Positions 20,901 to 50,274 of a DNA stretch of 64,000 nucleotides are shown piece after piece. Within the stretch, counting starts at the first letter, position 1; every line of letters starts with the position of its first letter. The notes beneath the pieces are model-generated. The model had not been told where the DNA came from and made no database searches. It was given only the letters and a program-made list of their open reading frames with translations. The position numbers were made by a program, and so were the translations under genes. Source of the stretch: an uncultured archaeon (lineage in GTDB: Archaea > Altiarchaeota > Altiarchaeia > IMC4 > SCGC-AAA252-I15). Where the stretch lies: NCBI GenBank assembly GCA_902384455.1, contig CABMCB010000094.1, forward strand, positions 53,305 through 117,304. Reading direction: 5' to 3'.

Positions 20901-22020
20901 CTGCGGATTTGTTGATTCCCGCGAGTCGCGCGTATATAGGACCCAATCGCCCGCTAATTAGAAACAGATCTGAGCTGTTATTAGTTGGCGAAGATTGCCT
21001 AAATTCCAGTGGGTGTGCGTAGTAGGAGAATGCGCCGCTTTGCTTCAGGCTTGATAGCAGTAGGTAGAGGGGTAGAGTGCATGTTTGATTGAATGTTCCA
21101 TGTTCGTCTGGAATACAATTTTTTTCTCCAAAGCTGTCGCCGTCTCCGTATATTGCTTCTGTGTAGTTTTCCATCCGGTAGCCAAGTAGATGAACATACT
21201 TTCCTGCGCTGTTTTCCGCGCTGATTTCCTCTCCAACGAGGCATCTTACGCCGCCCTTGCCGTTGACGGCGGCGCATTCCTGCTTGAGATTCCCCCATTT
21301 ACCGAGTTCCGGCGGATTTTGACTGTCGAGGTCGAAGCTGTGGTCTGTAACGGCAAACCAGTCTAACCCTATAAGTTGCGCGGCTTCAGCTGAAGCGTTT
21401 ATAGTATTCCCCACTTCGGCGTAGTTGTCGGTGTATATAGTATGGAAGTGCGTATCGCCGCAGATGTAGCCGGGAATTGAGGGTATCCCATTTCCGTAGT
21501 GAACAGAAAGGGGATAATGCTCTTCAACATTGTTCCATAGTGTTGCAAGGGTTCCGTTGATTATGGAGCCGTTACCACTCAAAGTTCCTATACGGGACTG
21601 ACCGGATAAGATGACTGTGAAAGAATAGATGCCTAAGGTATTGTCTAATTTTAGCTCTGAACGTTTAACGTATACGGTCGTCATCCACGTTCTTTGTTGA
21701 ATAAACGCCGGGAGAACGCCGTTGAGGAAAGTCGATAGAAGGTTTCCGTTTCCGTCATAAAGTAGAAGTTGTGTGCCGTTGTTGTTTGCATCAAACACTG
21801 AAATGGAAGTTAGGTTAAGGAACTCAGTTCTTCCGAATTCGCTTGACGTTTTAACTACGATGCTGACTGGCATTAATTCTACGTTGGGTTGTATTCTCCA
21901 CGGCGCATCCGCGACCGCATACCACGAAGCAAAATTGCTGCTGTAAGCTGTTGCTTCCTGCGTGGCCCACAGAGCCGACCCGAAGGCTAGCGCTAAAGCT
22001 AACCAATTTTGTTCCTTCAT
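17917..22020 (-). CDS. Large secreted PHP-family (CehA/McbA-like) metallohydrolase with Ig/FN3-like and C-terminal GW-strand domains
   Basis: GDTHFHT, AVTDHS, GEEIS, YAHP, GGTDSHG metal ligands; YRVRAQD..GNWG FN3 motif; signal peptide. Confidence 0.85.
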   Translation of the reverse strand: MKEQNWLALALAFGSALWATQEATAYSSNFASWYAVADAPWRIQPNVELMPVSIVVKTSSEFGRTEFLNLTSISVFDANNNGTQLLLYDGNGNLLSTFLNGVLPAFIQQRTWMTTVYVKRSELKLDNTLGIYSFTVILSGQSRIGTLSGNGSIINGTLATLWNNVEEHYPLSVHYGNGIPSIPGYICGDTHFHTIYTDNYAEVGNTINASAEAAQLIGLDWFAVTDHSFDLDSQNPPELGKWGNLKQECAAVNGKGGVRCLVGEEISAENSAGKYVHLLGYRMENYTEAIYGDGDSFGEKNCIPDEHGTFNQTCTLPLYLLLSSLKQSGAFSYYAHPLEFRQSSPTNNSSDLFLISGRLGPIYARLAGINKSAADMWIASMPYTFLNDGELNIGDYVSEDYTLPNYAGIQLWNGRTTENVKSRDLVLEKWRTLLTENLSRHINAIGGTDSHGDFNILRRRIITGESSDNTSSFGRVRTCCRAANNPSSIYDALQNGRCYMTDGPAVTLTADGVGMGDTLNIPNGRTPTVVLTWNTTAEFGNVSSITVFKGKKRELDALPVEEIVWQEYQNIPLQGSKVLPFSLSTNESYYLRVVLVGGGGFVAFSNPVWVNVSVAPFFEAVDLELTAQARGTYAIPEGYNPEDGNVNPGEEVDFTLKIENTGAKSGGDVSVEVWTAGPCVRKTLAQYQHIGAITAGDYEYVDVNHVDVYNLTNCKVGDGEKAQYIKLNVTIDDWAVDEHKNKILEIPVHPPTWIEFDTIEDRPPTNSSQPYFIGLKLPSSVTKARLFYRCQDTSVDDLHRTGWVDLSNYCVGSCPYNWKTPANFLLSEECEGKKVYWRIRTYDSWWGYQWSPYDDPGGGYKIGDDDVSPPNITVLSFGDADAGGNFIIAATFNDTKGIQETQDLPRVLYRWNASDVSQSKFDGIEKLAKAGGLWTAAIEAPEAHEGEHLYVRVQAADADNTPEYALSAVSDAGAVLMKPPTTPEIIGGFVDGYNVTLVWMPSSDGSGISAYEIEEYAKNKTTYASQIPLLQTQNKSLGNVTYRVRAQDAKGNWGVWSQNKTIEIKDLRVKEFVIQFNTTGWKYISIPLIPLNTSFKPFGDSFFKSLHTGNATDFGPGFDGSYDFTIGPIADSSATLASFNPTVPSWISQGFNKVSEKTGFSLWVNKPSTMKVLGYEPTTTVINFSAAGWYWIGYPGKYARPIKPFRDSVLSSLHDGNATNFGPDFDGAYDIIQWQKDDCGVGPNCSVTFDPKKPPQETQNLTELTPGRGYIIHVTRPSAFIVDYNKQYVAQSACLGSSPPAAGDWRINVNTVCEDPSIPVFGKLVLNNVLSLDYGTLVFTSTQDGLIEDYAPPVPLKDPGAGGIGLF

Positions 22021-22037
22021 TTGCGTCCTCCCGCGGA

Positions 22038-22868
22038 CTAAACAAACTGGTGTAGTATCTCTACGTCATCCACCGTGCCCACAGTGGTCGAATCAATATA
22101 CTTCCCAGTGTTTGTTTTAAGTTTGAGTGTGATATTGAAAGGATGTCTGCTTGAATACTGGATAGAATAGGGTACTGTTGCTAATGCACATGGATCATCC
22201 GGCCCGCCCGCCCTATTAATATTCCAAAGAGAATCATTCACATACGCCTCTAGAGTCTGAAACCCTCGCCCCGTCACATTCACCGCAAAAACGTGAGAAT
22301 AAACCTTTTCGTCGCCCTGTAATTCATAAGCAGGATAACGCCGCACTACTACACTCGTTATTTTCCCTTCCGCCGGACACTGTGAGTAGGGATCCACATT
22401 GGGCCCGTAGTTTACTGTGAACTTGTCCAAAACTTTGTCGCCGTCTCGCAACTCCACAGTAATCGGATACGTGAGGCTGGTGTTGGCGACGCGAATGCGA
22501 TAAGAAGTGGTGATTGTATTAGAGAATTCTACGTTGACTACGTCAGGCTTTAAACTAAGGGTTTCTGAACGTAAGCCCCAATATTGAATCGACTCATCCC
22601 CAATAAAACCAGACGCCCAATTTGAACCATACGGTAAACCACGCAACTTAAACTGCAGACCATTAATCCATATTTCGTAGGGTACTTTACCATGACTAGC
22701 TCCAAGCACACCCTCCCCCACAGCAAAACTAATTATTGCGCCTCCTTCCTGTACTTGAGGATCACCGAACTTTACGTATTCACCCAAACAACCAGAAGAT
22801 GCTAGAACAACAACCAAGCTTACCGTCAAGACCGCCGTCAATTCCTTGCCACCACGTAATTGTTTCAT
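22038..22868 (-). CDS. Array lipoprotein paralogue A4
   Basis: Lipobox SSGC; family blocks EYVKFGDPQVQEGG and NYGPNVDPYSQCPAEGKIT. Confidence 0.85.
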   Translation of the reverse strand: MKQLRGGKELTAVLTVSLVVVLASSGCLGEYVKFGDPQVQEGGAIISFAVGEGVLGASHGKVPYEIWINGLQFKLRGLPYGSNWASGFIGDESIQYWGLRSETLSLKPDVVNVEFSNTITTSYRIRVANTSLTYPITVELRDGDKVLDKFTVNYGPNVDPYSQCPAEGKITSVVVRRYPAYELQGDEKVYSHVFAVNVTGRGFQTLEAYVNDSLWNINRAGGPDDPCALATVPYSIQYSSRHPFNITLKLKTNTGKYIDSTTVGTVDDVEILHQFV

Positions 22869-22886
22869 CGCATCTATCCCTTCAGT

Positions 22887-23048
22887 TTATTTAGTATTGC
22901 TTTTGATTAAGCCGCTAACTAAAGCAGCCGAACCCGACCAGACTCCCGCACCCAACGCAAAGTTGCTGTTGTATGCTGTCGCATTCTGCGCGGCCCCCAC
23001 AGCCAGTCCGAAGGCTAGCGCTAACGCTAACCAAGTTTGTTCCTTCAT
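22887..23048 (-). pseudogene. Truncated 5' fragment (B'') of the PHP hydrolase gene
   Basis: Manual translation MKEQTWLALALAFGLAVGAAQNATAYNSNFALGAGVWSGSAALVSGLIKSNTK*; N-terminus matches the 17917..22020 signal peptide. Confidence 0.75.
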
Positions 23049-23073
23049 TTAGGTGTCCTCCCGCGGACTTTCT

Positions 23074-23910
23074 TTAGTTCAGGGGTTCGATTTCCTCCTC
23101 GGTTCTTGCGCCCACGACAACCGAGTCAATCAACCTCCCTGAAGGCGTTTTTAAAGTGAGATTAAAACTGAAAGGAAGAGTTCCAAAGTAATTCATAGAG
23201 TATGTTAAGTTCGCCCATTCACAGGGATTATCAGGTGGACTTGCTGGCGAAATCAAGTAATAACGAGAATCGAGGTATCCCTCCAAACGCCTAAACCCTT
23301 GACCATACGTATTGACAAAAAAAACAACTGAATACTCACTACCATTTTCTCCAATAGCATACCCCCGATACCTCTTCAATTTCACGCCCGTTATTTTTCC
23401 TTCCGCGGGGCATTCCAGGTACGGATTCACGTCCGGCCCGTAGTTTAACGTGAACTTATCCAACACTCTATCGCCGTCCCGCAACTCTACAGTAACTGGA
23501 TACGTTAGTGTTGTGTTGGCGACGCGAAGCCGGTACGATGTGACTGTGTGTCGCCATAGATTTACATTAATTGTGTCGTGTTCAGCATACAATTCAGGAT
23601 AAGACTGAGTACACCAGTAGTCAACCGCTTCTTTTTCTAGGTTGCCTTGCGCCCAGTAGGATCCAGGAGGACATCCTTCAGAAATCCAACGTCGCCCATT
23701 TAACCATACTTCCAACGACAAATCTTCACTGCTGTACCAATACCTTTGGTCTATCGCGTAGCTGATTATTGAACCCCCCTCTTGCACTTGCGGATCACCA
23801 AACTTAACGTACTCACCCAAGCAGCCAGAAGACGATAAAACAACAACTAAACTCACCGCTAAAATCACCGCCAACACCCTACCGCACCGTAAACGTTTCA
23901 TCGCATCCAT
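23074..23910 (-). CDS. Array lipoprotein paralogue A3
   Basis: Lipobox SSGC; same conserved family blocks as A1, A2 and A4. Confidence 0.85.
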   Translation of the reverse strand: MDAMKRLRCGRVLAVILAVSLVVVLSSSGCLGEYVKFGDPQVQEGGSIISYAIDQRYWYSSEDLSLEVWLNGRRWISEGCPPGSYWAQGNLEKEAVDYWCTQSYPELYAEHDTINVNLWRHTVTSYRLRVANTTLTYPVTVELRDGDRVLDKFTLNYGPDVNPYLECPAEGKITGVKLKRYRGYAIGENGSEYSVVFFVNTYGQGFRRLEGYLDSRYYLISPASPPDNPCEWANLTYSMNYFGTLPFSFNLTLKTPSGRLIDSVVVGARTEEEIEPLN

Positions 23911-23932
23911 CCCTTCAGTTAAATTACTTTGT

Positions 23933-24151
23933 TCATGCCGTAAATTGTACTTTAGTATTACTTTTGATTAAGTCGCTGACTACTACCGCAGCCAAATTCA
24001 GCCGGACTTCAACCCCCGGCTGTATTCTCCACGGCGCATCCGCGACCGCATACCACGAAGCAAAATTGCTGCTGTAAGCTGTTGCTTCCTGCGTGGCCCA
24101 CAGAGCCGACCCGAAGGCTAGCGCTAACGCTAACCAAAGTTTAAGTTCCAT
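23933..24151 (-). pseudogene. Truncated 5' fragment (B') of the PHP hydrolase gene
   Basis: 24021-24136 matches 21890-22005 with one mismatch seen by eye; then diverges into a ...LIKSNTK tail shared with B''. Confidence 0.8.
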
Positions 24152-24171
24152 CGTGTCCTCCCGCGGACTAT

Positions 24172-25020
24172 TTAGTTCAGGGGTTCGATTTCCTCCTCGG
24201 TCTTTGCGCCCACAACAACCGAGTCAATCAAACGCCCAGTCTGTGTTTTTAACGTGAGATTAAACGTGAACGGAAGAGTCCCAAAATAATTCATTGGGTA
24301 CGTTAAGTTCGCCCAGTCACAAGGATTATCAGGCGGATTAGCCGGCGAAATCAAGGAGTAGCGAGTATCAAGATAGCCCTCCAAATTCCTAAACCCTCGA
24401 CCATACGTATTAGCAAACAAAACAACAGAATACTCACTACCATTTTCACCAATAGCATAACCCCTATATCGCTTCAATTTAACGTCTGTTATTTTTCCGT
24501 CTGCGGGGCACTGCGGGTACGGGTTTACGTTGGGCCCGTAGTTTAGTGTGAATTTGTCTAAGATTTTGTCGCCTTCGCGCAATTCCACGTTAATCGGGTA
24601 TTTGACGCTGGTGTTTGCGATTCTAATGCGGAATGATGTTGTGATTACGTTGGAGAATTCTACGTTCACTATGTCCGGTTCAAGACTCACGCTTTGACCC
24701 CAAACAGCCCAATAATCCACAGGCTCTTCTCCAAGTTTGCCAGTCGCCCAGTAGGAGCCGGGCGGAAAAACACTACAACTCCACCTTCTACCGTCAATCC
24801 AAACTTCCCACGGCACATTACCTTTCCCGCCACCCAACACACGCTCCTCCACCGCAAAACTAATTATCTGCCCCCCCTCCTGAACCTGCGGGTCAACAAA
24901 ACGAACATACTCAACAAAAAACAACCAGTAAAAACCAACAACAAACAAACCCAAAATTATCAAGAAAACTAAACACAACCCCGCCACCACCCGCCATTTA
25001 CTTTTCATTGTATCCATCAT
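24172..25020 (-). CDS. Array membrane-anchored paralogue A2
   Basis: N-terminal TM helix; EYVRFVDPQVQEGG and NYGPNVNPYPQCPADGKIT. Confidence 0.85.
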   Translation of the reverse strand: MMDTMKSKWRVVAGLCLVFLIILGLFVVGFYWLFFVEYVRFVDPQVQEGGQIISFAVEERVLGGGKGNVPWEVWIDGRRWSCSVFPPGSYWATGKLGEEPVDYWAVWGQSVSLEPDIVNVEFSNVITTSFRIRIANTSVKYPINVELREGDKILDKFTLNYGPNVNPYPQCPADGKITDVKLKRYRGYAIGENGSEYSVVLFANTYGRGFRNLEGYLDTRYSLISPANPPDNPCDWANLTYPMNYFGTLPFTFNLTLKTQTGRLIDSVVVGAKTEEEIEPLN

Positions 25021-25035
25021 CGTCCTCCCGCGGAC

Positions 25036-25947
25036 TTATGTTGTTTTTTCTGTTTCGGACACAGCGCCCACTGTGACCGAATCTATTGGTTTACCTGTTT
25101 TAGTTTTTACTGTGAGTGTAATCGGCATTTTCAATGATTCGTTAGTATACACAAGACGATAAGGAATCGTTTGAATCACACAAGGATCAGACGGAGAAAC
25201 ATAATCAGGAAGACGATACTCACTCCAATAAACTCCATCAACAAAAGGCTCAGAACCATCAATACCCACCCCAGTCAAATTAAAAGACAACGTCCACACC
25301 TCCATAGGCCGCCCATCAAGAACATACTGACCCTCAGACTGCCGCAATATAACACCGCTAGTTTTTCCTTCCGCCTGGCATTGCGGGTACGGGTTTATGT
25401 CTGGCCCGTAGTTTACTGTTTTTTGTCCTACAGATTTTCCTTTATACTTGACTTCCACTGTAAGAGGGTAAGTGAAATTGAAATCTGATACCCTAAGCAG
25501 ATAATGAACCTTCCGCAAATACACAATATTTATGTTGATTGTATCATGCTCCGCCTGCAACCCCGGATACTCCACGTTATTAGGCATCAAACCCACCTGA
25601 CGCCCATTAACCCACACCTCCCACGGAAAATCAAAACGCTGACTCCAAACCCGATCTTCCACAACAAAAGACACCACACCACCCCCCTCAACCACATCAA
25701 CACCACCCAAACGAACATACTCAGAAAAAAACAACTCGTACACGCCAAGAGAAAACAAACAAAAAAATACAATAAACGTTAAACCCAATAGGATGGCGTA
25801 TTTATGGTTGTAGTGTGAGGTATTTTTTAGGCCTCTTTGGTTTCTGGTTGTCCTCCCGCGGACTCCGGATGTGAGGCTTAGGGTCGGGGTGATGGGGGGA
25901 TGGCGCCCACTGTCCTCCTCCCGGCCCGGTTTCGGTTGGACGTTCAT
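25036..25947 (-). CDS. Array membrane-anchored paralogue A1 (start uncertain)
   Basis: TM helix then EYVRLGGVDVVEGG and NYGPDINPYPQCQAEGK; the N-terminal extension runs through a 15-bp repeat copy. Confidence 0.75.
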   Translation of the reverse strand: MNVQPKPGREEDSGRHPPITPTLSLTSGVRGRTTRNQRGLKNTSHYNHKYAILLGLTFIVFFCLFSLGVYELFFSEYVRLGGVDVVEGGGVVSFVVEDRVWSQRFDFPWEVWVNGRQVGLMPNNVEYPGLQAEHDTININIVYLRKVHYLLRVSDFNFTYPLTVEVKYKGKSVGQKTVNYGPDINPYPQCQAEGKTSGVILRQSEGQYVLDGRPMEVWTLSFNLTGVGIDGSEPFVDGVYWSEYRLPDYVSPSDPCVIQTIPYRLVYTNESLKMPITLTVKTKTGKPIDSVTVGAVSETEKTT

Positions 25948-26125
25948 GTTTTCAGTATTATTTTGACTGCGAGGGCGGTTATGAATACTGTTGTGTTGAA
26001 AAGTATGTATGTGTTTGTTTTCTGGTTCATTCCAGGTCCCTCAGCGGTTTTGCTTTTAGTTCTCCGTCTTCTGTTTTCAGGCGGAGTATGTCGCGGTGTT
26101 TTAGGCTTAATGCGAGGATGACTTC

Positions 26126-26149
26126 GCGGGGCACGTAAATTCGCCCCGC
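26126..26149 (-). terminator. GC hairpin downstream of the 26185 ORF
   Basis: GCGGGGC-N10-GCCCCGC inverted repeat; no clear U-tract. Confidence 0.35.
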
Positions 26150-26184
26150 TCCGTTGTCTTCCAAGTATATTTTGCCTATCTCAA

Positions 26185-26478
26185 TCATTTGTCTGCTGCC
26201 TCCTTGAGGGTTTGGATTACGACGCTGTTTGGGAAGACGGCGACTCCTGCGCGGAGGTTGCGTCCGTCCTCGCTTTTCCCCAAGAAGACTGTGTGTTTGT
26301 ATGCTGGTTTGACGCCTTCTGCGCCGCGCTTCTCCAGTGCTACGTTGTCTAATGCTGCCGTTATCAGGGAGGCGCGGGCGGCCACCGCTTCGAATACTCG
26401 CGCCGACATGCGGCTTTCGTTCATTAGGTCGTATTTTGTTTTTCCTATGGTTACCGTTTTCGATTCAGTTTTGGTCAT
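26185..26478 (-). CDS. Hypothetical protein
   Basis: AGGTGG SD before ATG 26478; normal composition. Confidence 0.65.
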   Translation of the reverse strand: MTKTESKTVTIGKTKYDLMNESRMSARVFEAVAARASLITAALDNVALEKRGAEGVKPAYKHTVFLGKSEDGRNLRAGVAVFPNSVVIQTLKEAADK

Positions 26479-26607: not shown

Positions 26608-27828
26608 TTATTTTGTTTGCCAGGTCATTAGGTTTCCTTCTTGTTCGTGGGGTATTTTTCTTGGTAGTAGTAGGCCTGTTCTGGAGAATTCTGTGTGGTG
26701 TAGGCTTAGTGTTGCGGGTAGTATGCCGGCGTATATTTCGTCTTTTTGGTCTGGGTTTTGGTCTGCGTCGTTTAGTAGGCGAGTGATTTCTGTTTGTTCT
26801 TGTGGGTTGTCTAGTTGCCATTTTAGTCGTGTTAGGCGGGCTAGTGTGTATGGGCTTGTGGGGTAGGATTGTATTAGGTGTGCTTCTTTTTTTTGGGTTG
26901 CGTTGGCGATTGTTTGCGCTAGTGCCATTGTTGTGCGGGTTAGGAATGCGGACCATCCTTGTTGTTGGTAGGGTGTTTGGGTTTGGGTGTAGTGTATTTC
27001 CCATGTTTTGGCGCTTCCTAGGTTTAGGGTTTGGTATGCGACTTGGGTTTCGTGTCCTTTTGTGCGTGTGGGGTTTGTGTCTGTTATTTCTAGCATTATT
27101 CCTGCGCCGCCCCATACGGCTGTGTGTTCGTCGCCTGTGTCTGCGTCTGCTGGTCGGGTTATTTTGAGTGTGTATCCGTCTTGGAGGGGTATTGTCCAGG
27201 GTTGTCCTTTGTTTCCGTCGTATGCTTTGTTTATTAGGTCGTTGGTGTTTGCGGGGTTTATTGTTTCTGCGGCTGTTTGTATTAGGCGGTCGTCGTCTTG
27301 TTGCGTGAATACGGGGTTGCTTGTGCGTGCGGGCGTTGCTTCTCCTGTAAGTAGGCGCGCTATTTTTTGGGCTGCTGCTTCTGCGGTTTTTGTAAGTAGT
27401 ATGCGTTCTTCTTCTTGCATTGGCCGGTGGGCTTTCCAGCTTATTTGGGGGTCTGCGGTGCGTATTTGGTGTTTTTGGGTGTCGAATGGGGTGAAGTTTA
27501 TGCAGGCTAGGTCTTGGTCTCCTTGGGCTAGGAACATTCGGAAGGGGGGTATGCCTGCTTTTGGCGTGATGTCTATGCGGTATTCGACGTCCAAGTGTAT
27601 TGTTGCTTTGCGGTTTAGTTCGGCTATTGTTTGAGCGCGGTTTGGGTATTGGTTGGTTCTTGCTCGCCAGTAGCGTCTTATGTCTCGTCCGAAGTCGTAT
27701 ATTCCTTCTCTGTTGTCGGGTAGTGCGTCTAGGATTCGTTTGGTTACTGGGTCTATCTGGAGGGTTTCTGGGGGCGCGGGTGTTTCGCCGGGTTTGTGTT
27801 GTATGGGGTCGGGTTGGTTGACTAGCAT
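26608..27828 (-). CDS. Hypothetical protein, possible degenerate GNAT-like C-terminal domain
   Basis: 406-aa ORF; WEIHYTQTQTPYQQQGWSAFL resembles GNAT motif A (weak). Confidence 0.65.
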   Translation of the reverse strand: MLVNQPDPIQHKPGETPAPPETLQIDPVTKRILDALPDNREGIYDFGRDIRRYWRARTNQYPNRAQTIAELNRKATIHLDVEYRIDITPKAGIPPFRMFLAQGDQDLACINFTPFDTQKHQIRTADPQISWKAHRPMQEEERILLTKTAEAAAQKIARLLTGEATPARTSNPVFTQQDDDRLIQTAAETINPANTNDLINKAYDGNKGQPWTIPLQDGYTLKITRPADADTGDEHTAVWGGAGIMLEITDTNPTRTKGHETQVAYQTLNLGSAKTWEIHYTQTQTPYQQQGWSAFLTRTTMALAQTIANATQKKEAHLIQSYPTSPYTLARLTRLKWQLDNPQEQTEITRLLNDADQNPDQKDEIYAGILPATLSLHHTEFSRTGLLLPRKIPHEQEGNLMTWQTK

Positions 27829-27854
27829 TGTTATTAACCTGCGTTGGGAGTTAA

Positions 27855-28466
27855 TTAATTCGGCTTTTGTGCTGTGAAGTATATGTCGGCGTGTATGTGT
27901 GTTCCGCCGTGTGTGTGGTTTACTAGGTCTTCGGTGATTTCGACTTCAGTCATTCCCGCCAGCATTTCCCTTATTTCTTTTTTTGTGAAGTATTTTCCTT
28001 CGCTGCCTCTTGTGCCTTTTGGCCCGAATTTTTCGTCTTTTTCGCTTGGAACTGAGTGGACTAGCAGTCCCCCGGGCTTAAGCACCCTCATCATCTCGTC
28101 GAACGCCTTTTTCCTTTCGGTGCTGGTGAATATGTGGAATATGAAGAATCCGTATACTGCGTCATATGAGGCGTCTTTGAATGGTAGGTTTAGAAGCGAC
28201 CCCAATCGTAAGTCTGCTTTGGGGAAGAGTTTTTTTCCCAGACGCAACGCCTCCTCGGAGGCGTCTATTCCAACCGCCTCAAAGCCTTCCCGCCGGAAGT
28301 ATTCCACGTCCCGGCCGTATGCGCAGCCGACCTCAAGGATTCCGCAGGCTTTTTTCTTTTTGAACAATTCTGCGGCTTTGACTGCGGCGGGGCTTGGTTC
28401 TATGCCCCATACTGCGCCTTCTTGTTTGAAGCGGTGGTTCCAGAGTTTTGCCGAGTCGTCTTCCAT
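27855..28466 (-). CDS. Class I SAM-dependent methyltransferase
   Basis: ILEVGCAYGRD motif I, GIDAS, LPFKDASYDAV, RVLKPGG; probable start ATG 28466 in TAATG overlap with the upstream stop. Confidence 0.9.
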   Translation of the reverse strand: MEDDSAKLWNHRFKQEGAVWGIEPSPAAVKAAELFKKKKACGILEVGCAYGRDVEYFRREGFEAVGIDASEEALRLGKKLFPKADLRLGSLLNLPFKDASYDAVYGFFIFHIFTSTERKKAFDEMMRVLKPGGLLVHSVPSEKDEKFGPKGTRGSEGKYFTKKEIREMLAGMTEVEITEDLVNHTHGGTHIHADIYFTAQKPN

Positions 28467-29326
28467 TAGTTGAATGTGGCTATTGGAAGGCTTATGAGGT
28501 TCCATCCTCCGAACATGATTGTGCGGTAGGTTATTGCTTGCAGGCAGTTTACGCATTGGATTGTTCTGGAGCCCGTGTCTTCTTGCGCGGTGTTGTCTGC
28601 TGTTGCTCGTAGCGTGAATGTTATGTTTCCGTTGTCTGTTGCGCCTGCTGCGGGTTGTATGTTTAGTGTGCCTGTGATTTGTGCGCCTGCTGCCAGTGTT
28701 CCGCCCGATATTATTGCGCTTCCTGTTCCGTCTTGGTAGGATAGGGAGTTGGAGGGGGTTGTGGTTATGGCGAGGCGTAGGTTGCTGGTGGATGCTGTTT
28801 GGGCGTCTCCTATGTTTGTGAGGCGGTATTGGACTGCGGCTGTGGTTCCGCCGTTTATTGCTGCGGGGACGCTTATTATTTCCAGGTTGAGCACAGGCTG
28901 GTTTTTGACTTCGATTGTTCCTGTGGGGCTTCCTGTTGCGGGGTTTATTGTGTCGCCGCCTGTTGAGCTTCCGCGTACTTCGATGATTATTACGCTTCCG
29001 TCGTATGTTCCTGTTGTTGTGGGTTGTATTTCGAATGTTGCGGTGCCAGAGCATGAGGGTAGTGTCTTGTAGTTTATGTCGTAGTTGTCGCGGACTCCCC
29101 ATCCGGAGGGTATGCTTGTGACTTTTGCTTGGCAGTTTGTGACTGAGACGCCGGAGGGACTTGAGTAGGTGAATCCTATTTGAGTGTAGAGGTCTTTGCT
29201 GTAGGGGCTTGTTTCAGTGAAAGCTACGTTGCTGATGCTCATGCTGTATGTGGCCGCGTACGCTGTCTGGGCGATGAAGGCGGTTAGTATTAGCGCCGCC
29301 CAAGCCGTCTTGGTTGTTTTGTTCAT
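28466..29326 (-). CDS. Secreted Ig-like protein with C-terminal GWNLISLP motif
   Basis: Signal peptide; beta-rich; ends ITYRTIMFGGWNLISLPIATFN. Confidence 0.8.
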   Translation of the reverse strand: MNKTTKTAWAALILTAFIAQTAYAATYSMSISNVAFTETSPYSKDLYTQIGFTYSSPSGVSVTNCQAKVTSIPSGWGVRDNYDINYKTLPSCSGTATFEIQPTTTGTYDGSVIIIEVRGSSTGGDTINPATGSPTGTIEVKNQPVLNLEIISVPAAINGGTTAAVQYRLTNIGDAQTASTSNLRLAITTTPSNSLSYQDGTGSAIISGGTLAAGAQITGTLNIQPAAGATDNGNITFTLRATADNTAQEDTGSRTIQCVNCLQAITYRTIMFGGWNLISLPIATFN

Positions 29327-29327
29327 T

Positions 29328-32300
29328 TTATGGTCCTCCTCCGGTTGCGTCTCTGTCGCAGGCGTTGTCTGCGAAGGACCAGGTGCATAATGCTCCTGGG
29401 CCGGGTGTTTGGTCGCAGATGCTTTGTTGGGTTATTATGTTGCAGCTTGCGCATTGGTTGTGGCCTGGGTCCCAGAAGCATGGGGGGTCGGCTGCGTTGC
29501 ATGCGCCTTGCGTTGCGTATGTTGTGCAGTCTACTGGGTCGCCGGTTGGGTTACATTCGCTTAGTCCGCCGTCCCACGCGCATAGGCCGTGGCTGTTGTC
29601 GCATACGTTTTGGACTATGATGCTGTTGCATGCGTCTGGGTTGCCTCCGCCTCCTCCGCTGAATGCTATTCTCATGCACTTGTTTTTGTCGGCGTCCCAG
29701 TTGCATTCGGGTAGGTGGCTGCAGGAGCTTTCGTCTTGTATCATGTTGCAGCTTAGGCATTTGTCGCCTTCGGGTGTTCCTGTGACCCATAGGCAGGGTG
29801 GGTTGGCGTTTGTGCAGTCGCTTTGGTTTTTGAGGTCGCGGCAGTATACGGGGTTGGGGTTGGGTTGGCAGGTGCTTAGTCCGGCGTTCCAGCTGCATAG
29901 TCCGGGTGGGTTGGATGCGCATACCGTGTTGTTGGCGACTCCTTCGCAGGCTTCAACTTGAGGTCCTTCGCCGCCTCCGCCCCCGCCGCCTTTGCCTCTG
30001 AAGTCGAACCAGATGCTGCTTTCTTCGCTGTCTCCTGCGTCTTCTTGTATTAGGATGCGGACTTCGTAGCCGAATCCTTCGTACCAGCTTGTGTTGTCTG
30101 TGAGGGCGATTAGCAGGAACATTAGGCCGTCGCTGTCTAGGCGGTTGTCGTCGATTGTTATGCCGTCGTAGTGGACTGAGACGTTTATGTCGCTGTAGTT
30201 GGCGAGGTCTGTTTCCTGCCATCGGCCGCCTATTACGCCGAACATTGATATGCCTGTGACGTTTACTGTGCCGGATATGGGTTGTCCGTTGAAGTCTCTG
30301 ACGCGTATTCCTACTGTGAGGTTGCTTCTTGTGGTTAGGGATTGGCCCCACCATCCTTGGTATCTTTCTAGTAGGTGTACGGGTTCGCTTGTGTTTGCGT
30401 CCCATATTTCGTAGCCGCTTTGGGTGAATAGCGCGCCTGATGCGTTTCTGTATGGCAGGTTCATGAAGTTCCAGGTTCCTATGTTGCCTTGGGCTTCTGC
30501 CATGAGTCCTGCTTCGTCTGTTTGGCTTCCGGATGTGGGGTTTTGGTCTGTGCAGTTCATTCCTTCCCCGCCTCCTTCGCATTCGCGGTCGAATCGTATC
30601 ATGTTGCTGTCGTCGTCTCCTCGTATCATGCCTTGTTGGGCGGGTTCGTCTTGGCCGCGTTCTTCTGCGTAGAGGATGAATGTTACGTTTCTGCCGCTGT
30701 TGTTGTTTAGGGGTGTGGGCCATGCTGTTTCTGGGGCGATGCTGCGTTTGTATTGTCCGTTTACTGAGCGGGGTATTCCTAGTGTTTTGGTTGGGTTTTG
30801 GGCTATGACTACGCCGTCGTTTTGGCTTAGGTAGCTTAGGTAGTAGTTGGTGCCGTCGAAGTTGGTTAGGTTGCCGTACTGGCGGCCTTCGTTTGGTGTG
30901 AGTATGGTGTCGTTGGATAGGTAGATGGATGTTAGTGTTACGTCGCTTTGGCTTTCGTTTCCGTCTATGGCGACTGCGTTGTATAGGGTTCCGCTTACGT
31001 TTATTTTGCATAGGAGTTTTTGGTAGTTTTCGTTTGTGTAGTGGTCTTGGGTTTCGGCGGGTAGTCCGCTTACGTTGTAGCCTAGGGTTACCATGCCGTT
31101 TGTTAGGGTTACGCTTGCGTTTACTGAGTTGTCGCCGTTTACTCCTCCGAATGTTATTTTGACTCCGCGTCGTTCCTGGGTTGGTTGTCCGGGGTTGAGC
31201 CACATTTCGTCGGCGCCGCATCCTCTGCAGGTGGTTTCGTTTATTAGGAATCTTGCGGTCTGTTCGGTGTTGTTGGACTCGGACAGAGTGACTAAGTACG
31301 CCTGATACTGTTTCTCTTCAGCGAGGTTGAATGTGGTCCAGCCGTAATCCAGTGGGCTTATGTAGAGGACGTTTAGGATTATTGTGTCGTTGAGCCAGCT
31401 GTTGTAGACTCCTATGTCTTCGCCTTGGTGTTTTCCTGAGGTACCTGTGAAGTTGCTTGTGGCGCTCGTGTAGAACACGGGGTCTGCTGGGTTTGTCGTG
31501 TCTATTGCGTACCAAAGGTTCCTCCAGCTTGCGTAAGTAACCAGGTAGCTGCCGCTTGGGCCGACAAGCGCGCCTTGGTTTGGGTCGACTTTTATGTTGG
31601 AGTGTATTGTGTCGTTGTATTTCGTCTGAAGGTCGAATGTGATTTGATACATTGTGCCGGTCCACGTGGCGTTGAATATAGTCAGGTTTACTTCCGCTTC
31701 GCCTCCGGGGCAGCCTTGTTGGGCGCACCAGTCTTGGGTGTTGGCGTCGCCTCTAACTTGGATTACTCCAGTCTCGTTTGGTATTCCGGATGCGTCTAAG
31801 GCTACTGCCTTCTGGGCTGTGCTTAGGTTGAGGTCGTCGTCTATGTAGAGGTTTGTGGGCAGTCCGCCTGTGTCGTTTATGAACATGTAGGCGTTGGTGT
31901 TCACGCCTTCCCTGCGTATGCCAGTGTCGTAGCAGACTTGGTATAAGCCGTTTGTTGGGCCGCCGCATCCTGTGGCTGCGCCTGCTCCTTTGGTTATTAT
32001 TGCGGTGTTTGTTTGGGCGGCTTCGAATACCGTCTGGCATCCGTCTGGGCGGCATATGATGCCTTTGAATGTGTATGTTATGTTTTCCTGTGGGTCTTGT
32101 ATTTGGCCGTCTGGGAATTGCCGTTCTCTTGTTAGCACCACGTCTCCTTGGGAGTAGGCTGCGGCGCCTGAGTAGTTGCCTGCGGCGGCTTTTATGAAGA
32201 GGTGTTGGATGTTTTGGTTGTAGAGGGCTGTGTAGCTGTCGTAAATCATGGAGGGGCCGAAGTCGTTGCTTAAGTATCCGGTGAAGTTGGCTTCGGGTAG

Positions 32301-35300
32301 GTCGGCGAGTATTTGTTCGAGTAGTGTGCCGTTTGTGTTTATCCATTCGGTTTGGGTTCCGCGGCTTTCCCACCATGTTAGCCGGCAGCTTGTTGCGTTG
32401 AAGTCTGTGAAGGCGGGGATTTTTATTACGTTTTTGAATAGTTCTGTTCGGCTGTCGAATGCGCGTACTTGTAGGAAAGGTGCCTCCCAGGGTTCAGGCA
32501 CTTCTGTGATTGTTCCGTTGGGGTCTGTAGCCCTGTATAGGACTCGGAAGCTTCCGGGCACTGCTATGTTGACTGTGAGGAAGCCCATTCCGTCGTCTCC
32601 GACAACTGCAGGCCACCATGTGTAGTTGTTTGGGTCTAGCGGTTGGAATGTGCGGTCGTTGACTATTTCTGCGACGGTTATGTTTAGGTTTCTGGTGCGG
32701 CTGTATATTGGGATTGTGATGTTGCTTTGTTTGCGGTGCGTCCCAAGCCAGTTGTCTCTGCCGCTTTCGTTGAATGCGAATAGGACGTCGAAGAAGTCTC
32801 CTTTGATTAGGTAGAGTGTTTTGCCTGCGTAGTTAAGGTTTGCTCCGTTGCCGCCTATTATTATCGGAGTTTCCGCGGTGAAGTCTAAGTCGAGGTTGGT
32901 GTCGACGAGGGCGGTGTCGTAGACTCCCGACGTGTGCGGGTCCATGAGTACGAATGGGATTCCGTAGCTTGCTCTGTTTTGGCCGCGGTCTATTTCGCCG
33001 TCGTGATTGAAGTCTACGTCTACGAAGTCTTCGCCTATTGTTCCTATGCGCAGTACGCCGGATAGCGTTACGTTTCCGCTCGTGTTTACGCGTAGGTCGC
33101 GGAGTTCCCAGGTATTGGCGAATATGACTGGGGCTAGTGTGACGCTGTCGCGTTGTATTTTGGATATGCGGAACTTTGCGCCTGAGGAGTCTGTTATTGT
33201 GTCTCCGACTGAAAGCGGGGTCAGGCTTCCGTTAGTGAGGTCGGCGTCGTTTTGGGCTACGTATACGCGCGCTGAACTTACTGACTCCCAGCTGACTGGT
33301 CCGACGATTAGGTTGAATCCGCGCAGTACGGTGAGGTTTCCTGATGTGTTGTAGTAGCTGTAGAATTGGTTTAGTGCGACCTCTTCGTCGTGGTTTCTGA
33401 CCTGAAGTATTTCAGCCCTTACGCCGGTCTTGTTTATTAGGCCGCAGCTGTAGTTGCTGCTTATTACGGGGTATGGGCAGCCTCCTGGGTATTGGTCGTA
33501 GAATCTGTTGCCTCTTTGTTCGTCGTAGTAGTAGAGTTTGTAGGAGGATGTTGTGTTGTAGTCTTGGCTCCATGTCTGTAGTATGTTGGCTAGGCCGTAT
33601 GTGAATGATCTTAGGCTGAACCATTGGCTGTAGATTACGTTTCCTGGTTGTCCGTCTCCGAATGTGACGTTGAATCGTAGTTGTAGTACGTATTCTCCTT
33701 TGTTTAGTCCTGCGTTGGATAGTGTTGCGGTTAGTACGCGGCTTGCGTTGACGTCGTTTTCCCATGTGAGGTTGATTATGTTTTCGGGGTGGGGTATTGT
33801 TTGGTCGCCTTCTTTTCCTCCGCCGCCCATCTTGAGCAGGCGCACCAGCGACGCGTCTGTTACGTTTGACGATGGGTCTGCGCTTACGCGGAAGCGCAGT
33901 GATTCGCCTGGCGAGAACACTGGTTCTCCTCTAAGAAGGAATTCCACGTCTATGTTGAATGGGGAGACTGAGAAGTGGTTGAATCCTGACGCCATCCTGC
34001 CTTGCGCGTCTTCGCCGACAGCCTCAATATCGTATTCTCCACCTAACGATGCGGCTTGCAGTATGAATGAGCTGACGTTGACGTTCCCGTACTGCGGGAT
34101 TAAGCACCACGCTACGTTTGTTATGTTGGGAGTGAGCGACCGGAATACGGGTTCGCCGTTGAGGTTTGTGAACTGGAACAGCTGGGACTGGTCTAGGCGG
34201 GGTGTGGCTTGTACTATGCCTCCTCCGGCTTCGAATCCTACTATGGCGAACGCCTGGCTTCCCACCACCTTTATGGGGCCGCCGCCTCCGTCTTTGCCTC
34301 CTGCGTTTAGGGGTGTGCAGTTGCCTCCGGTTCGTTCTACTGCGAATACGGTCAGGTAGAAGTCTTGTATTTTGAAGAATCCTCGTCCGTAGTCAATGTT
34401 TCCGTCGGCGTCTCTTACGCGGATGGATACGTCGTATTCTCCTACGGTCAGGTTTTCTGTGGGGTCTATTGTTACGTTGGCGCGGCCGTCGCTTCCTGTT
34501 GTTGCTCTTATTGCGGTGTAGTTGAATGTTCTGCTGGTTCTTTGGTGGCGTATTTCTTGTATGTATACGTCTACGTTGCTTGCTGGGCCGCGTGGGCCTC
34601 TGACTTCTATGGTTAGGTTTATGCTGTCTCCGGGTGCGAAGTAGTCGAATCCGGCGTTTGAGTTGGGGTATCCGCGTATGTCGTATCTTTTGATTTCAAA
34701 TCCTCCGCCTCCTATGCCGGTTGTGGGGGTGGAGTTTATTGTTGTTGTGATGCGGTATCTTAGGGAGTGGAAGCTTGTTGTTGTGTTTGGTAGTTGTATC
34801 CAGAGGATGGTTGTGTTTTCTTGTCCTATTGTGGTTGTTTGCCAGCCCCATGCTGTGACTGCGTCGAGTATGTTTGTTCCTTGGGCGAATAGTTCTTGCG
34901 GTTCGATGTTTTGGATGTTTTCGGGGGATACTTCGTTTCCGGTCTGTAGGTCTTTTACTGTTATTTTGAGGGTGACGTTTGATGAGGGGGGGAATTGCGG
35001 GCGGAATGTGTTTGACGTTAGGTCCCATGGTTGCGCGTATGTTTCTAGGTTTTGTATTAGCAGTTTTGAGCGTGCTTCTGTTGTTTCTCCGTTTAGGTTT
35101 AGTGTGGCGTGAAGGGCGTATTCTCCGGGTGTCGCTGGCGCCCAAGGCAGCCACGCCATGCATTGGCTTTCAAACGGCTGGGGGATTAGCGCTGTGGGGG
35201 CTTTGGAGTCGACCGTCTGTTTGACGTTGTCGAAGCCGCCTATGATTCCGGGTGCTGAGCTGTAGTTTGCAAGCAAAGTCCCTGAAGAGTCCGTTATTTC

Positions 35301-37022
35301 AAGGCTGATTAGGGATTGGTTGCAGACGTTTACGTCGTCGCTCACGTTTTCGTCTATGGGCAGGAGGTCTTGAGGATCCAGGTTTTTGGCTATGTCGCCT
35401 TTGACCCCGAAGTTTGTGGCAAGCAGAGTTATGAATCCTTCCGCGTTTGGCGGAAACGCTCCGAAGTCGGGTTCAGGGTTACCCGGGAGGAACCGGATAG
35501 GCTGCATCTGGAGCTCAAATGATTTGACGGTGATTGAACGCCCGATTACTCGCTCTTCAACGCCGTCGTTCACGAGAGTAACAACCACATCCCAGCGGCC
35601 TGTGCTGTTCAGACTGAACAGGGGGGTAAGGTTTGTTGTGAGCCCTATTATGTATTGGTTTGTGGAGTTGCTCCAGAATAGGCCGTCTGCGTCTGTGCCG
35701 TTGTATGTCCATGTTTGGGTGAGGATTGATGATGGGTTGTATATGTCGAATGTTATTGTTGTTATGTTGTCGGCGTCTGTGGTTAGTCCTGCTGCGAGGG
35801 GGGAGTTGATTTGGAAGTCGAATCGGTCGCGGCGCATTAGTGGGTCTCCGACAAGTAGCATTGCGTTCCAGGATGGTTGTAGGTTGAATGTTTCTGCTGC
35901 GAGGTTGTTTGCGATTAGGGTGTAGCTTCCTGCGGCGTATGTTCCTGTTTGGAGTACTGCTTCGTTTGATAGTCCGTCTGCTCCTGTTTGGTCTTCTATG
36001 TGTGTGTCGTTTTTGACGTCGGTTTCTTGGTAGCTTCCGTTTGGTTGTTGTAGGCGGAGTATGAGGCTTGTTATGTTTGTTGATGTTGGGGCTCCGCTTT
36101 GTGTGAACACTGCGAGGGTTATGTTGTCTCCGGTGGTGTAGGGGCGGTCTCCTGGGCCGGGTGGCATCGCCAGTACTACGCCGTTGTTCCATATGTGGGC
36201 TATCCGGTATGGTGCTGTTTCGTTTAGGTTTTGGCAGCGGACTGCGGTGTCGTCTATTGTGCGGCGTAGTTTGGTTGTTGCGTCTGATGTTTCGTTTAAT
36301 ATTGGGTCGTTGTCGAAGTAGGCTTTGTTGTATTCTCCGGGTGCTGTTGGGTCTCCGACCCATACGTAGAGTGTTCCTGTGGTTTCGCCGTCGCCGTCTA
36401 GGTCGCAGCCGAACGATGCTTCGCTTATGCTTCCGTTGTGTAGTGTGCCGCTTAGGGTTGTGTTTTCTCCGCCTACGGGGAATCCTGCGGCAACGTTCCA
36501 TGTGTCGTTTGTGTTTATTGTTATTGTGCGGGCTGCTCCGTCTGGGTTGGTTTCCAATAGGAGTATGCGCATGTAGTAGTCTTCTATGATTGTGAATTCG
36601 TGCGTGATGTTTTTGGCGCCGTCATCCAACTCCATAGTCCATGTTCCTGCGGACGTGAAGTTGTCTCCCGTGTAGGAGAGCGTTGAGGAGGTGTTGAGTG
36701 ATACTGTTTCTACTGGGGGGTTGCCGGCTAATCCTCCTGCTGGGAGGTAGAAGCGGATTTGAACTGGCGTATCGTCTTGGGTTGCTGCGACGTTCACCAG
36801 TAAGGTTTCGCCGGTCCTGAGGAAGCTGGGGCCGGTGACTGAGGTTATGGTGCCGTTTAGTGGGCCATATCCGAATCCTAATGCGGATGAGCCTTGGCCT
36901 GAGGCTTTTGCCTGTGCGCCGCTTCCTCCTGCGGCAAGTAGTAGACCGACGATGAGTGCGGTCGCAAACGGGGGTATTGTCCTTTCGGGGTGTTTCGCCG
37001 ATAATTTAGAAGGAGGCATCAC
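29328..37022 (-). CDS. Giant (2564 aa) secreted surface glycoprotein with a C-terminal Cys-rich repeat region
   Basis: Signal peptide; many N-x-S/T sequons; DxDxDG-like motifs; poly-Gly linkers; repeated C-x-W-x(5-9)-C units at the C-terminus. Confidence 0.85.
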   Translation of the reverse strand: MMPPSKLSAKHPERTIPPFATALIVGLLLAAGGSGAQAKASGQGSSALGFGYGPLNGTITSVTGPSFLRTGETLLVNVAATQDDTPVQIRFYLPAGGLAGNPPVETVSLNTSSTLSYTGDNFTSAGTWTMELDDGAKNITHEFTIIEDYYMRILLLETNPDGAARTITINTNDTWNVAAGFPVGGENTTLSGTLHNGSISEASFGCDLDGDGETTGTLYVWVGDPTAPGEYNKAYFDNDPILNETSDATTKLRRTIDDTAVRCQNLNETAPYRIAHIWNNGVVLAMPPGPGDRPYTTGDNITLAVFTQSGAPTSTNITSLILRLQQPNGSYQETDVKNDTHIEDQTGADGLSNEAVLQTGTYAAGSYTLIANNLAAETFNLQPSWNAMLLVGDPLMRRDRFDFQINSPLAAGLTTDADNITTITFDIYNPSSILTQTWTYNGTDADGLFWSNSTNQYIIGLTTNLTPLFSLNSTGRWDVVVTLVNDGVEERVIGRSITVKSFELQMQPIRFLPGNPEPDFGAFPPNAEGFITLLATNFGVKGDIAKNLDPQDLLPIDENVSDDVNVCNQSLISLEITDSSGTLLANYSSAPGIIGGFDNVKQTVDSKAPTALIPQPFESQCMAWLPWAPATPGEYALHATLNLNGETTEARSKLLIQNLETYAQPWDLTSNTFRPQFPPSSNVTLKITVKDLQTGNEVSPENIQNIEPQELFAQGTNILDAVTAWGWQTTTIGQENTTILWIQLPNTTTSFHSLRYRITTTINSTPTTGIGGGGFEIKRYDIRGYPNSNAGFDYFAPGDSINLTIEVRGPRGPASNVDVYIQEIRHQRTSRTFNYTAIRATTGSDGRANVTIDPTENLTVGEYDVSIRVRDADGNIDYGRGFFKIQDFYLTVFAVERTGGNCTPLNAGGKDGGGGPIKVVGSQAFAIVGFEAGGGIVQATPRLDQSQLFQFTNLNGEPVFRSLTPNITNVAWCLIPQYGNVNVSSFILQAASLGGEYDIEAVGEDAQGRMASGFNHFSVSPFNIDVEFLLRGEPVFSPGESLRFRVSADPSSNVTDASLVRLLKMGGGGKEGDQTIPHPENIINLTWENDVNASRVLTATLSNAGLNKGEYVLQLRFNVTFGDGQPGNVIYSQWFSLRSFTYGLANILQTWSQDYNTTSSYKLYYYDEQRGNRFYDQYPGGCPYPVISSNYSCGLINKTGVRAEILQVRNHDEEVALNQFYSYYNTSGNLTVLRGFNLIVGPVSWESVSSARVYVAQNDADLTNGSLTPLSVGDTITDSSGAKFRISKIQRDSVTLAPVIFANTWELRDLRVNTSGNVTLSGVLRIGTIGEDFVDVDFNHDGEIDRGQNRASYGIPFVLMDPHTSGVYDTALVDTNLDLDFTAETPIIIGGNGANLNYAGKTLYLIKGDFFDVLFAFNESGRDNWLGTHRKQSNITIPIYSRTRNLNITVAEIVNDRTFQPLDPNNYTWWPAVVGDDGMGFLTVNIAVPGSFRVLYRATDPNGTITEVPEPWEAPFLQVRAFDSRTELFKNVIKIPAFTDFNATSCRLTWWESRGTQTEWINTNGTLLEQILADLPEANFTGYLSNDFGPSMIYDSYTALYNQNIQHLFIKAAAGNYSGAAAYSQGDVVLTRERQFPDGQIQDPQENITYTFKGIICRPDGCQTVFEAAQTNTAIITKGAGAATGCGGPTNGLYQVCYDTGIRREGVNTNAYMFINDTGGLPTNLYIDDDLNLSTAQKAVALDASGIPNETGVIQVRGDANTQDWCAQQGCPGGEAEVNLTIFNATWTGTMYQITFDLQTKYNDTIHSNIKVDPNQGALVGPSGSYLVTYASWRNLWYAIDTTNPADPVFYTSATSNFTGTSGKHQGEDIGVYNSWLNDTIILNVLYISPLDYGWTTFNLAEEKQYQAYLVTLSESNNTEQTARFLINETTCRGCGADEMWLNPGQPTQERRGVKITFGGVNGDNSVNASVTLTNGMVTLGYNVSGLPAETQDHYTNENYQKLLCKINVSGTLYNAVAIDGNESQSDVTLTSIYLSNDTILTPNEGRQYGNLTNFDGTNYYLSYLSQNDGVVIAQNPTKTLGIPRSVNGQYKRSIAPETAWPTPLNNNSGRNVTFILYAEERGQDEPAQQGMIRGDDDSNMIRFDRECEGGGEGMNCTDQNPTSGSQTDEAGLMAEAQGNIGTWNFMNLPYRNASGALFTQSGYEIWDANTSEPVHLLERYQGWWGQSLTTRSNLTVGIRVRDFNGQPISGTVNVTGISMFGVIGGRWQETDLANYSDINVSVHYDGITIDDNRLDSDGLMFLLIALTDNTSWYEGFGYEVRILIQEDAGDSEESSIWFDFRGKGGGGGGGEGPQVEACEGVANNTVCASNPPGLCSWNAGLSTCQPNPNPVYCRDLKNQSDCTNANPPCLWVTGTPEGDKCLSCNMIQDESSCSHLPECNWDADKNKCMRIAFSGGGGGNPDACNSIIVQNVCDNSHGLCAWDGGLSECNPTGDPVDCTTYATQGACNAADPPCFWDPGHNQCASCNIITQQSICDQTPGPGALCTWSFADNACDRDATGGGP

Positions 37023-42537: not shown

Positions 42538-42538
42538 T

Positions 42539-50233: not shown

Positions 50234-50240
50234 ATCGGCA

Positions 50241-50252
50241 GAAGTTTATATA
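50241..50252 (+). promoter_or_regulatory. BRE/TATA box (GAAG-TTTATATA), probably a leaderless transcript
   Basis: TTTATATA at 50245-50252, 22 nt before ATG 50275. Confidence 0.6.
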
Positions 50253-50274
50253 GCGGCGTCATTAATTTAGTATT

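Follow-up and report, generated by a model that had tools for sequence, protein, structure and literature searches.

How could four neighbouring genes come to hold three modules in four different combinations, such that each module pairs the genes in another way? We addressed this question for a tandem array in a stretch of 64,000 nucleotides (nt) of contig CABMCB010000094.1 from an uncultured archaeon, referred to here as the window. The array consists of four paralogous frames on the minus strand, A1 to A4, which span 25947-22038 and are separated from one another by gaps of 15-261 nt. An earlier note on this DNA had proposed that the four genes are mosaics of an anchor, a middle, and a C-terminal module, and that module shuffling or gene conversion diversifies a surface protein as in antigenic-variation loci. 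Recombination between array members at two conserved blocks was the best explanation of the mosaic, and we would give this reading a probability of roughly three in four. The recombination part of the proposal held up, on clustered informative sites and on trees of the separate modules; the likeness to antigenic variation did not.

Module groupings in the four paralogues

Each of A1 to A4 is predicted to comprise a membrane anchor and two immunoglobulin (Ig)-like beta-sandwich domains. A1 (25947-25036, minus strand as are all four) encodes 303 amino acids (aa), with an N-terminal tail, a transmembrane anchor of type a, Ig-like domain 1 of type x (AEHDTIN), a linker, and Ig-like domain 2 of type p. 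A2 (25020-24172; 282 aa), which starts 15 nt past the A1 stop, has a transmembrane anchor of type a, domain 1 of type y (SL.PD.VNVEFSN), and domain 2 of type q (KLKRYRGY...EEEIEPLN). A3 (23910-23074; 278 aa) and A4 (22868-22038; 276 aa) both begin with a lipobox-like signal peptide, type b, followed by domain 1 of type x and domain 2 of type q in A3, and by domain 1 of type y and domain 2 of type p in A4. A1 is the most divergent member, with 32-35% identity to A2, A3, and A4, which are 51-63% identical to each other. These four are the only copies of the family in the genome, and none had a Pfam match above threshold.

The N-termini of A3 (VVVLSSSGC) and A4 (VVVLASSGC) fit a lipobox pattern of a positively charged N-terminus, a hydrophobic stretch, and [..][..][AGS]C, which we take to be that of PROSITE PS51257; A1 and A2 do not fit it and have a longer hydrophobic anchor instead. 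The pattern fit 49 of 2898 crude genome frames, and cysteine at the end of the box was approximately 3-fold enriched over its frequency.

The strings by which the earlier note had grouped the genes were all present. For the anchor, these were FFSEYVR in A1 and FFVEYVR in A2, and SSGCLGEYVKFG in A3 and A4; for domain 1, SLEPDIVNVEFSNVITTS in A2 and SLKPDVVNVEFSNTITTS in A4, with LQAEHDTININ in A1 and LYAEHDTINVN in A3; and for domain 2, KLKRYRGYAIGENGSEYSVV...TEEEIEPLN in A2 and A3. The grouping did differ by module, being A1A2 versus A3A4 in the anchor, A2A4 versus A1A3 in domain 1, and A2A3 versus A1A4 in domain 2. At the C-terminus, the likeness of A2 and A3 was borne out; most letters of the consensus offered for A1 and A4 are invariant in all four genes.

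Nucleotide identities in sliding windows of the codon alignment followed the same groupings. In the anchor, identity was 68-81% for A3-A4 and 61-69% for A1-A2, compared to 35-59% for the cross pairs. A2 and A4 were 64-79% identical over most of domain 1, and A2 and A3 were 80-88% identical in domain 2, where the other pairs ranged from 36 to 64%. Domain 1 was a finer patchwork, with alignment columns from approximately 105 to 148 favouring A2 with A3, and columns 83-104 and 149-175 favouring A2 with A4.

The codon alignment of A1-A4 had 756 ungapped columns, 114 of which were quartet-informative; 34 supported A1A2/A3A4, 21 supported A1A3/A2A4, and 59 supported A1A4/A2A3. Neighbouring informative sites agreed in 82 of 113 cases, against a mean of 43.5 (standard deviation 4.75) and a maximum of 64 in 100,000 permutations. 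A recombination test of the kind suggested in the earlier note, with a score of the pairwise homoplasy index type, gave 0.387 versus 0.614 +/- 0.011. Three breakpoints rendered 92 of the 114 sites compatible, whereas the maximum in 200 permutations was 71. When the triplet of A2, A3, and A4 was analysed with its spacers, neighbour agreement among 433 informative sites was 236/432 versus 161.3 +/- 9.4. The triplet divided into a segment at 25002-24886 in which A3 mainly equalled A4, a mixed segment at 24880-24511 in which A2 matched A4 more commonly than A3, and a segment at 24508-23964 in which A2 mainly equalled A3.

Switch points, module trees, and strand composition

The switches fell at conserved blocks, as had been proposed: one at the border of anchor and domain 1, and one at the NYGP..PY..C linker. 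Conserved block 1 (EYV[RK]F.DPQVQEGG, minus strand) is situated at the anchor/domain-1 border and lies at 25678-25722 in A1, 24868-24912 in A2, 23770-23814 in A3, and 22737-22781 in A4. The first switch, at alignment nt 237-249 (A2 24903-24886), was located beside it. Conserved block 2 (minus strand) contains the last strands of domain 1 and the linker NYGP..PY..C.A.GK, and lies at 25363-25494 in A1, 24493-24624 in A2, 23395-23526 in A3, and 22362-22493 in A4. The second switch was found in this inter-domain linker at alignment nt 618-630 (A2 24525-24508). In 60-nt windows, A2, A3, and A4 were 62-83% identical in block 2, whereas pairs that are not partners reached 38-60% in the variable parts.

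In the structure model of A1, residues 44-74 form a transmembrane helix, and residues 77-178 and 193-293 each form a beta-sandwich, with the linker (NYGP..PY..C.AEGK) between them at 179-192; both switches coincide with the structural borders predicted by this model. In a fold search, the best match was FlaF/FlaG (5tug), with a Z score of 8.1 and a root-mean-square deviation of 8.1 over 106 residues. Many Ig-type chains followed at Z 6.4-7.8, a range graded as common by the tool, and these are generic Ig-like matches.

Trees were built per module, as the earlier note had suggested, and the preferred quartet was a different one in each of the three modules. Separate branch lengths were allowed for each module in the likelihood tests. 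By the approximately unbiased (AU) test on nucleotides, the alternative trees scored 0.005 and 0.002 in the anchor and 0.015 and 0.004 in domain 2. On amino acids, both alternatives were rejected in every module (anchor, approximately 0.02; domain 1, 0.025; domain 2, 0.008). In parametric simulations under each alternative tree, 0 of 100 replicates reached the observed gap in any of the six tests; the observed likelihood gaps were 11.35, 9.82, and 11.82, and the largest simulated gap was 4.85.

Base composition in this region complicates such tests. Within genes, silent positions alternate between stretches with hardly anything but G/T and stretches with hardly anything but A/C (21700-26150 and 26608-37022), and the third positions of A1 run from +0.7 to -1.0 on the scale of (A+C)-(G+T). 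In all four paralogues, the profile begins and ends G/T-rich and turns A/C-rich over conserved block 2, with an amplitude that declines from A1 to A4; the rise in composition comes approximately 40-45 nt after the conserved GGCC of the NYGP block. In the neighbouring genes at 26608-27828 and 29328-37022, T makes up only 1-3% of third positions. Because this bias makes silent transitions converge, we repeated the tests with purine/pyrimidine (RY) coding and with amino acids. With RY coding, sites supporting A1A2/A3A4, A1A3/A2A4, and A1A4/A2A3, in that order, numbered 27, 0, and 2 in the anchor, 6, 19, and 11 in domain 1, and 10, 2, and 44 in domain 2, and neighbour agreement was 78/125 versus 46.4 +/- 5.15. 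The amino-acid sites, in the same order, were 7/0/0 in the anchor, 0/6/1 in domain 1, and 1/0/10 in domain 2, with a neighbour agreement of 18/26 versus 8.5 +/- 2.3.

Several points weigh against recombination as the source of the mosaic. The domain-1 alternatives had nucleotide AU values of 0.039 and 0.082, and the A1A4/A2A3 tree (0.082) was not rejected there; moreover, the segment borders had been picked from the data ahead of the per-segment tests. Silent sites, which are saturated in domain 1 and in the anchor, gave no signal of closer kinship in these two modules: the proportion of synonymous differences (pS) in domain 1 was 0.65 for A2-A4 and 0.67 for A2-A3, and pS in the anchor was 0.62 for A3-A4 versus 0.60, so that the groupings of domain 1 and anchor rest on amino-acid and transversion patterns. 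In domain 2, A1 was nearly equidistant from the others, with 39 of 111 positions identical to A4 versus 36 and 35; its affinity to A4 is marginal, and the A1-A4 group there thus mainly reflects the likeness of A2 and A3. The strand-composition bias is itself a concern, and an additional A1A2/A3A4 patch in conserved block 2 (8 of 9 sites) was rejected as a compositional artefact, being gone with RY coding and with amino acids. The structure model has a modest mean predicted local distance difference test score of 63.8 from an input alignment of four sequences, and lipid anchoring of A3 and A4, expression, and surface location are putative. Finally, the material is four sequences from one metagenome-derived genome with no outgroup or orthologous array.

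Some of these points would be expected if no recombination had occurred and a single gene tree held throughout, with a different module in each gene evolving fast or convergently, so that the slow pair would look alike and long branches would attract. The lack of separation between pairs at silent sites of domain 1 and anchor and the near-equal distances of A1 in domain 2 agree with a single tree, as does the finding that, except in the anchor, A2 is always one of the closest pair, like a slowly evolving copy. However, the rejection of both alternatives in every module was obtained with branch lengths free to differ, and no simulation reproduced it. The partner with which A1 shared states changed from module to module, each time above the permutation values (7/14 versus 1.6, 6/16 versus 1.0, and 10/42 versus 3.0), in a test that ignores site-specific constraints and is hence optimistic. 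The A2-A3 pS fell from 0.60-0.81 elsewhere to 0.42 exactly in domain 2, where the other pairs were at 0.67-0.73, and the A2-A3 similarity of domain 2 runs on into the non-coding spacer. A3 and A4 also have a leader in common that A2 is without. We consider a single tree highly improbable.

Tandem duplication and the ages of the exchanges

The array grew by tandem duplication, and the traces of this process lie in the spacers. Immediately downstream of A4 is a gene (22020-17917, minus strand) for a protein of 1367 aa with a signal-peptide-like start, and the first approximately 150 nt of this gene are the source of two remnants within the array. The remnant behind A2 (24151-23933, minus strand) is a 72-aa open frame that copies the 5' end of the 1367-aa gene (88% over residues 4-51), and it is followed by a junction and the leader of A3. 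The remnant behind A3 (23048-22887, minus strand) is a 53-aa open frame, an older and shortened copy that is approximately 82-85% identical with a 34-nt deletion, and it is followed by the leader of A4. Both spacers thus consist of a remnant, the same junction, and a leader into the start of the next gene, and a 17-nt AT-rich element is common to the A3 and A4 leaders only. Because remnant, junction, and leader recur behind A2 and A3, the duplicated unit was a gene with the ribosome-binding-site (RBS)-like motif that follows it and the start of the downstream gene. Both remnant frames are still open, with a signal-peptide-like start and the shared end ..LIKSNTK. When the A3 and A4 leaders were compared with the region upstream of A1, only a 16-nt motif aligned, with no further homology.

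The RBS-like motif is a 14-nt element, GTCCGCGGGAGGAC, which occurs exactly five times (25850-25863, 25022-25035, 24155-24168, 23055-23068, and 22025-22038) and nowhere else in the 2.4-Mb genome. It lies directly before A2, both remnants, and the 1367-aa gene, and within the frame of A1, where its position is the upper limit of 25850 that the earlier note had given for the array; A3 and A4 have a leader of their own in common. The copies are exact while their surroundings have diverged to approximately 80%, and the motif contains GGAGG and a GTCC/GGAC inverted repeat. Because of its GGAGG, GTCCGCGGGAGGAC is probably a ribosome-binding site or a conserved translation-initiation element. In A1, the motif sits 84 nt past the ATG, and no start codon follows shortly after it. 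Apparently, this gene has lost the start it once had and is now read from an ATG further upstream, so that 50 residues, encoded by A/C-rich sequence, form a tail at its N-terminus (25790-25947).

Inheritance across gene borders could also be followed. Domain 2 of A2, the spacer, and the anchor of A3 aligned with domain 2 of A3, the spacer, and the anchor of A4 at 78-95%, 64-82%, and 67-82%, respectively, in the only such pair that the array offers for comparison. The domain-1 cores did not follow this pairing.

The exchanges differ in age, with domain 1 the oldest, then the anchor, then domain 2 with its spacer. The synonymous divergence (dS) was about 1.5, which is saturated, for domain 1 of A2-A4, about 1.3 for the anchor of A3-A4, and 0.61 for domain 2 of A2-A3. 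The corresponding ratios of nonsynonymous to synonymous divergence (dN/dS) were 0.22, 0.10, and 0.13, and the shared tracts have been under purifying selection since exchange. Even the A2-A3 tract of domain 2 is not young, as 8 of its 43 four-fold sites differ by transversion; 34 of its 51 differences are at third codon positions. Since the tracts differ in age, exchange recurred over a long time. A single recent conversion tract was found, 120 nt at 24018-24137 (minus strand) with 98% identity (2 mismatches) to 21887-22006 at the start of the 1367-aa gene. It falls outside the A genes, within a remnant derived from another gene; the older copy behind A3 is approximately 82% identical to both of the others in a gapped alignment.

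These divergences also bear on whether the mosaic was made in the computer, by a short-read assembler that joined reads of different strains or paralogues. The assembly is metagenome-derived and in 103 contigs, and tandem paralogues are a classic source of mis-joins. However, the shared tracts differ by 5-30% and so hold no long exact words, and the only near-identical stretch, the 120-nt tract with its 2 mismatches, is shorter than the 127-nt overlaps at contig ends. The structure of remnant, junction, and leader is present twice in diverged form. In addition, a contig of 151 nt from a different run within the same study, which may stem from the same sample, spans the A1/A2 junction (24914-25064) unchanged. 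We find an assembly artefact scarcely credible.

The course of events under recombination at the conserved blocks would be as follows. Tandem duplication of a unit made up of a gene, the RBS-like motif, and the first approximately 150 nt of the downstream gene expanded the array, and the two blocks stayed similar in all copies. Misaligned copies could then have recombined homologously at these blocks, by unequal crossing-over, gene conversion, or both, and swapped the segments between. The stretch from domain 2 through the spacer to the following anchor would have moved as one unit, and the core of domain 1 would have been exchanged separately and more than once. We infer that the outcome is a fixed, probably co-expressed set of four combinations of anchor, domain 1, and domain 2, with no switch.

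Possible ongoing variation, precedents, and neighbouring genes

Programmed antigenic variation by gene conversion is well known from Neisseria pilE/pilS and opa, Borrelia vlsE, and Anaplasma msp2. The present array resembles these systems in the segmental, non-reciprocal exchange between paralogous surface-protein sequences and in the conserved flanks around variable segments. It differs from them in that it has no expression site with silent cassettes and no near-identical donor tracts, and its tracts are old and under purifying selection; the likeness drawn in the earlier note was accordingly not upheld.

In an active system of this kind, frequent, ongoing gene conversion among the four genes would reshuffle modules within the population and so vary a surface structure, for example against viruses or symbionts. 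Recombination was repeated and, judging by the 120-nt tract, recent at least once; the exchanged parts are predicted to be exposed domains and the anchor, and the conserved blocks could act as recombination sites. Against this, A1-A4 are all complete frames (276-303 aa), each downstream of a copy of the RBS-like motif apart from A1, which holds its copy within the frame, and there are no silent or truncated A cassettes. No near-identical coding tract was present, as shared coding sequence was 67-95% identical, with 95% in the best 60-nt window and dS of at least 0.6; the one recent tract lies outside the A genes, and dN/dS in the shared tracts was about 0.1-0.2. Population reads from three runs yielded six contigs of 151-230 nt at a depth of about 2, all identical to the window and covering little of it, and at this thin coverage they contained no variants and no joints. 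We consider active diversification unlikely.

A diversity-generating retroelement target was also considered and rejected. The mismatches of the A2/A3 tract had no adenine bias (A 14/17, C 12/9, G 12/13, and T 13/12), which counts against adenine-directed mutagenesis. A Pfam scan of neighbouring genes, which did not take in every frame of the window, showed neither a recombinase nor a reverse transcriptase. Both results also weigh against active diversification.

A more specific proposal would tie ongoing exchange to the sequence GGCC. Genome-wide, the keto skew has a step at GGCC (8309 sites), whereas four control palindromes were flat; strand composition thus changes stepwise at GGCC, as though this were a starting point of DNA synthesis or repair. 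GGCC is conserved in all four A genes (25406, 24536, 23438, and 22405), the inter-domain switch lies approximately 10-25 nt from it, and the recent 120-nt tract also holds a GGCC. The link rests on this one breakpoint and one recent tract, and GGCC occurs once per approximately 290-400 nt. A genome-wide search for a link between GGCC and recombination found only 35 intragenomic repeat pairs of at least 90% identity, many of them contig-end overlaps, which is too few. That module exchange is still ongoing and started at the specific GGCC site in the linker, which would make the array a site-triggered archaeal surface-variation cassette, is decidedly doubtful. If it were true, GGCC-directed breaks repaired from a paralogue would both write the composition sawtooth and shuffle anchor and Ig modules.

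The closest precedent for recombination at conserved blocks is the lpl cluster of Staphylococcus aureus, and this mode of evolution is already known from bacterial gene clusters. According to the lpl study, recombination events in a central conserved region bring 5' and 3' variable regions into new pairings, and unequal crossing-over explains duplication, deletion, and apparent conversion (Tsuru & Kobayashi 2008, PMC2568036). Both systems consist of same-strand tandem genes for anchored surface (lipo)proteins, both have a conserved region within each gene as the recombination site, and in both the trees of the 5' and 3' variable regions of a gene conflict; the unit of domain 2, spacer, and next anchor, inherited as one in the A array, is a further likeness. 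The A array differs in that it is archaeal and of an unrelated protein family without detectable homologues, and in that its genes have two conserved blocks and thus three modules where lpl has two. Moreover, the anchor type, transmembrane helix or lipobox-like, is itself an exchanged module in the A array, and its spacers hold remnants of the downstream gene. The lpl model is underpinned by between-strain rearrangements, whereas the A array is known from one genome.

Gene conversion in archaea is known between thermosome subunits. It has also been described for the duplicated mtrA genes of methanogens (PMC4632066), and the mtrA case resembles ours as interlocus conversion between paralogues in an archaeal genome. 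In contrast to such housekeeping duplicates, which were homogenised by concerted evolution, the A array gained new domain combinations. Among the yeast FLO paralogues, ectopic recombination gives chimaeric cell-surface alleles (PMC3512402); the likeness lies in chimaeric surface-protein genes that arise by recombination between paralogues, and the difference in a eukaryotic host, dispersed or subtelomeric genes, and another protein family. A full-text literature search turned up no publication on an array of this kind in Altiarchaeota or in archaea at large, which is not proof that there is none.

The array is lineage-specific and forms an operon-like run upstream of the 1367-aa secreted protein. 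A word-based search of 5.8 billion proteins returned 2 matches, both encoded by the window (A2 and a 275-aa form of A3), and a profile search of 1.84 billion representatives returned 3, namely A4, A1, and a weak match to a repeat protein (P0005, E 4.1e-6). Among 60 other genomes of this phylum, which were searched twice, none contained the family, and the 581 matches to a pattern in metagenome contigs brought up no relative. In the ESM Atlas, there was no usable feature match, and the structure matches all had a template-modelling score <0.4. In a genome from a different family of the same order (G027), no A-like gene precedes an orthologue of the 1367-aa gene; in a further genome (G015), the contig ends too early to tell.

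The 1367-aa protein had only weak CARDB/fn3 matches. A PHP-type phosphoesterase, considered for its HFH.../DH motif, was rejected, as residues 150-560 had no Pfam or PDB sequence match. A second protein of the genome (G000:C96:9296-9913) is 48% identical to its residues 1077-1284, which identifies a paralogous C-terminal module. Just upstream of A1, a 53-aa frame at 26027-26188 had a sub-threshold MazE/AbrB-type match (E 0.069) and could be a small DNA-binding regulator. Elsewhere in the window, there are tandem pairs of frames at 41626-43450 (303 and 303 aa, no Pfam match) and at 48074-52428 (719 and 717 aa, with CarboxypepD_reg and Ig-like domains). The window carries TFIIB, aNOP56, and an Mbh-type hydrogenase, and is therefore archaeal.

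For work on other loci, the array carries a warning that local strand-composition bias can mimic or blur recombination signals, and that transversion or amino-acid controls are needed. No new mechanism is revealed, and a single locus gives a dated series of exchanges. For this uncultured archaeon, the finding would mean that tandem copies have traded entire structural modules, the kind of membrane anchor among them, and that new surface proteins arose in this way.

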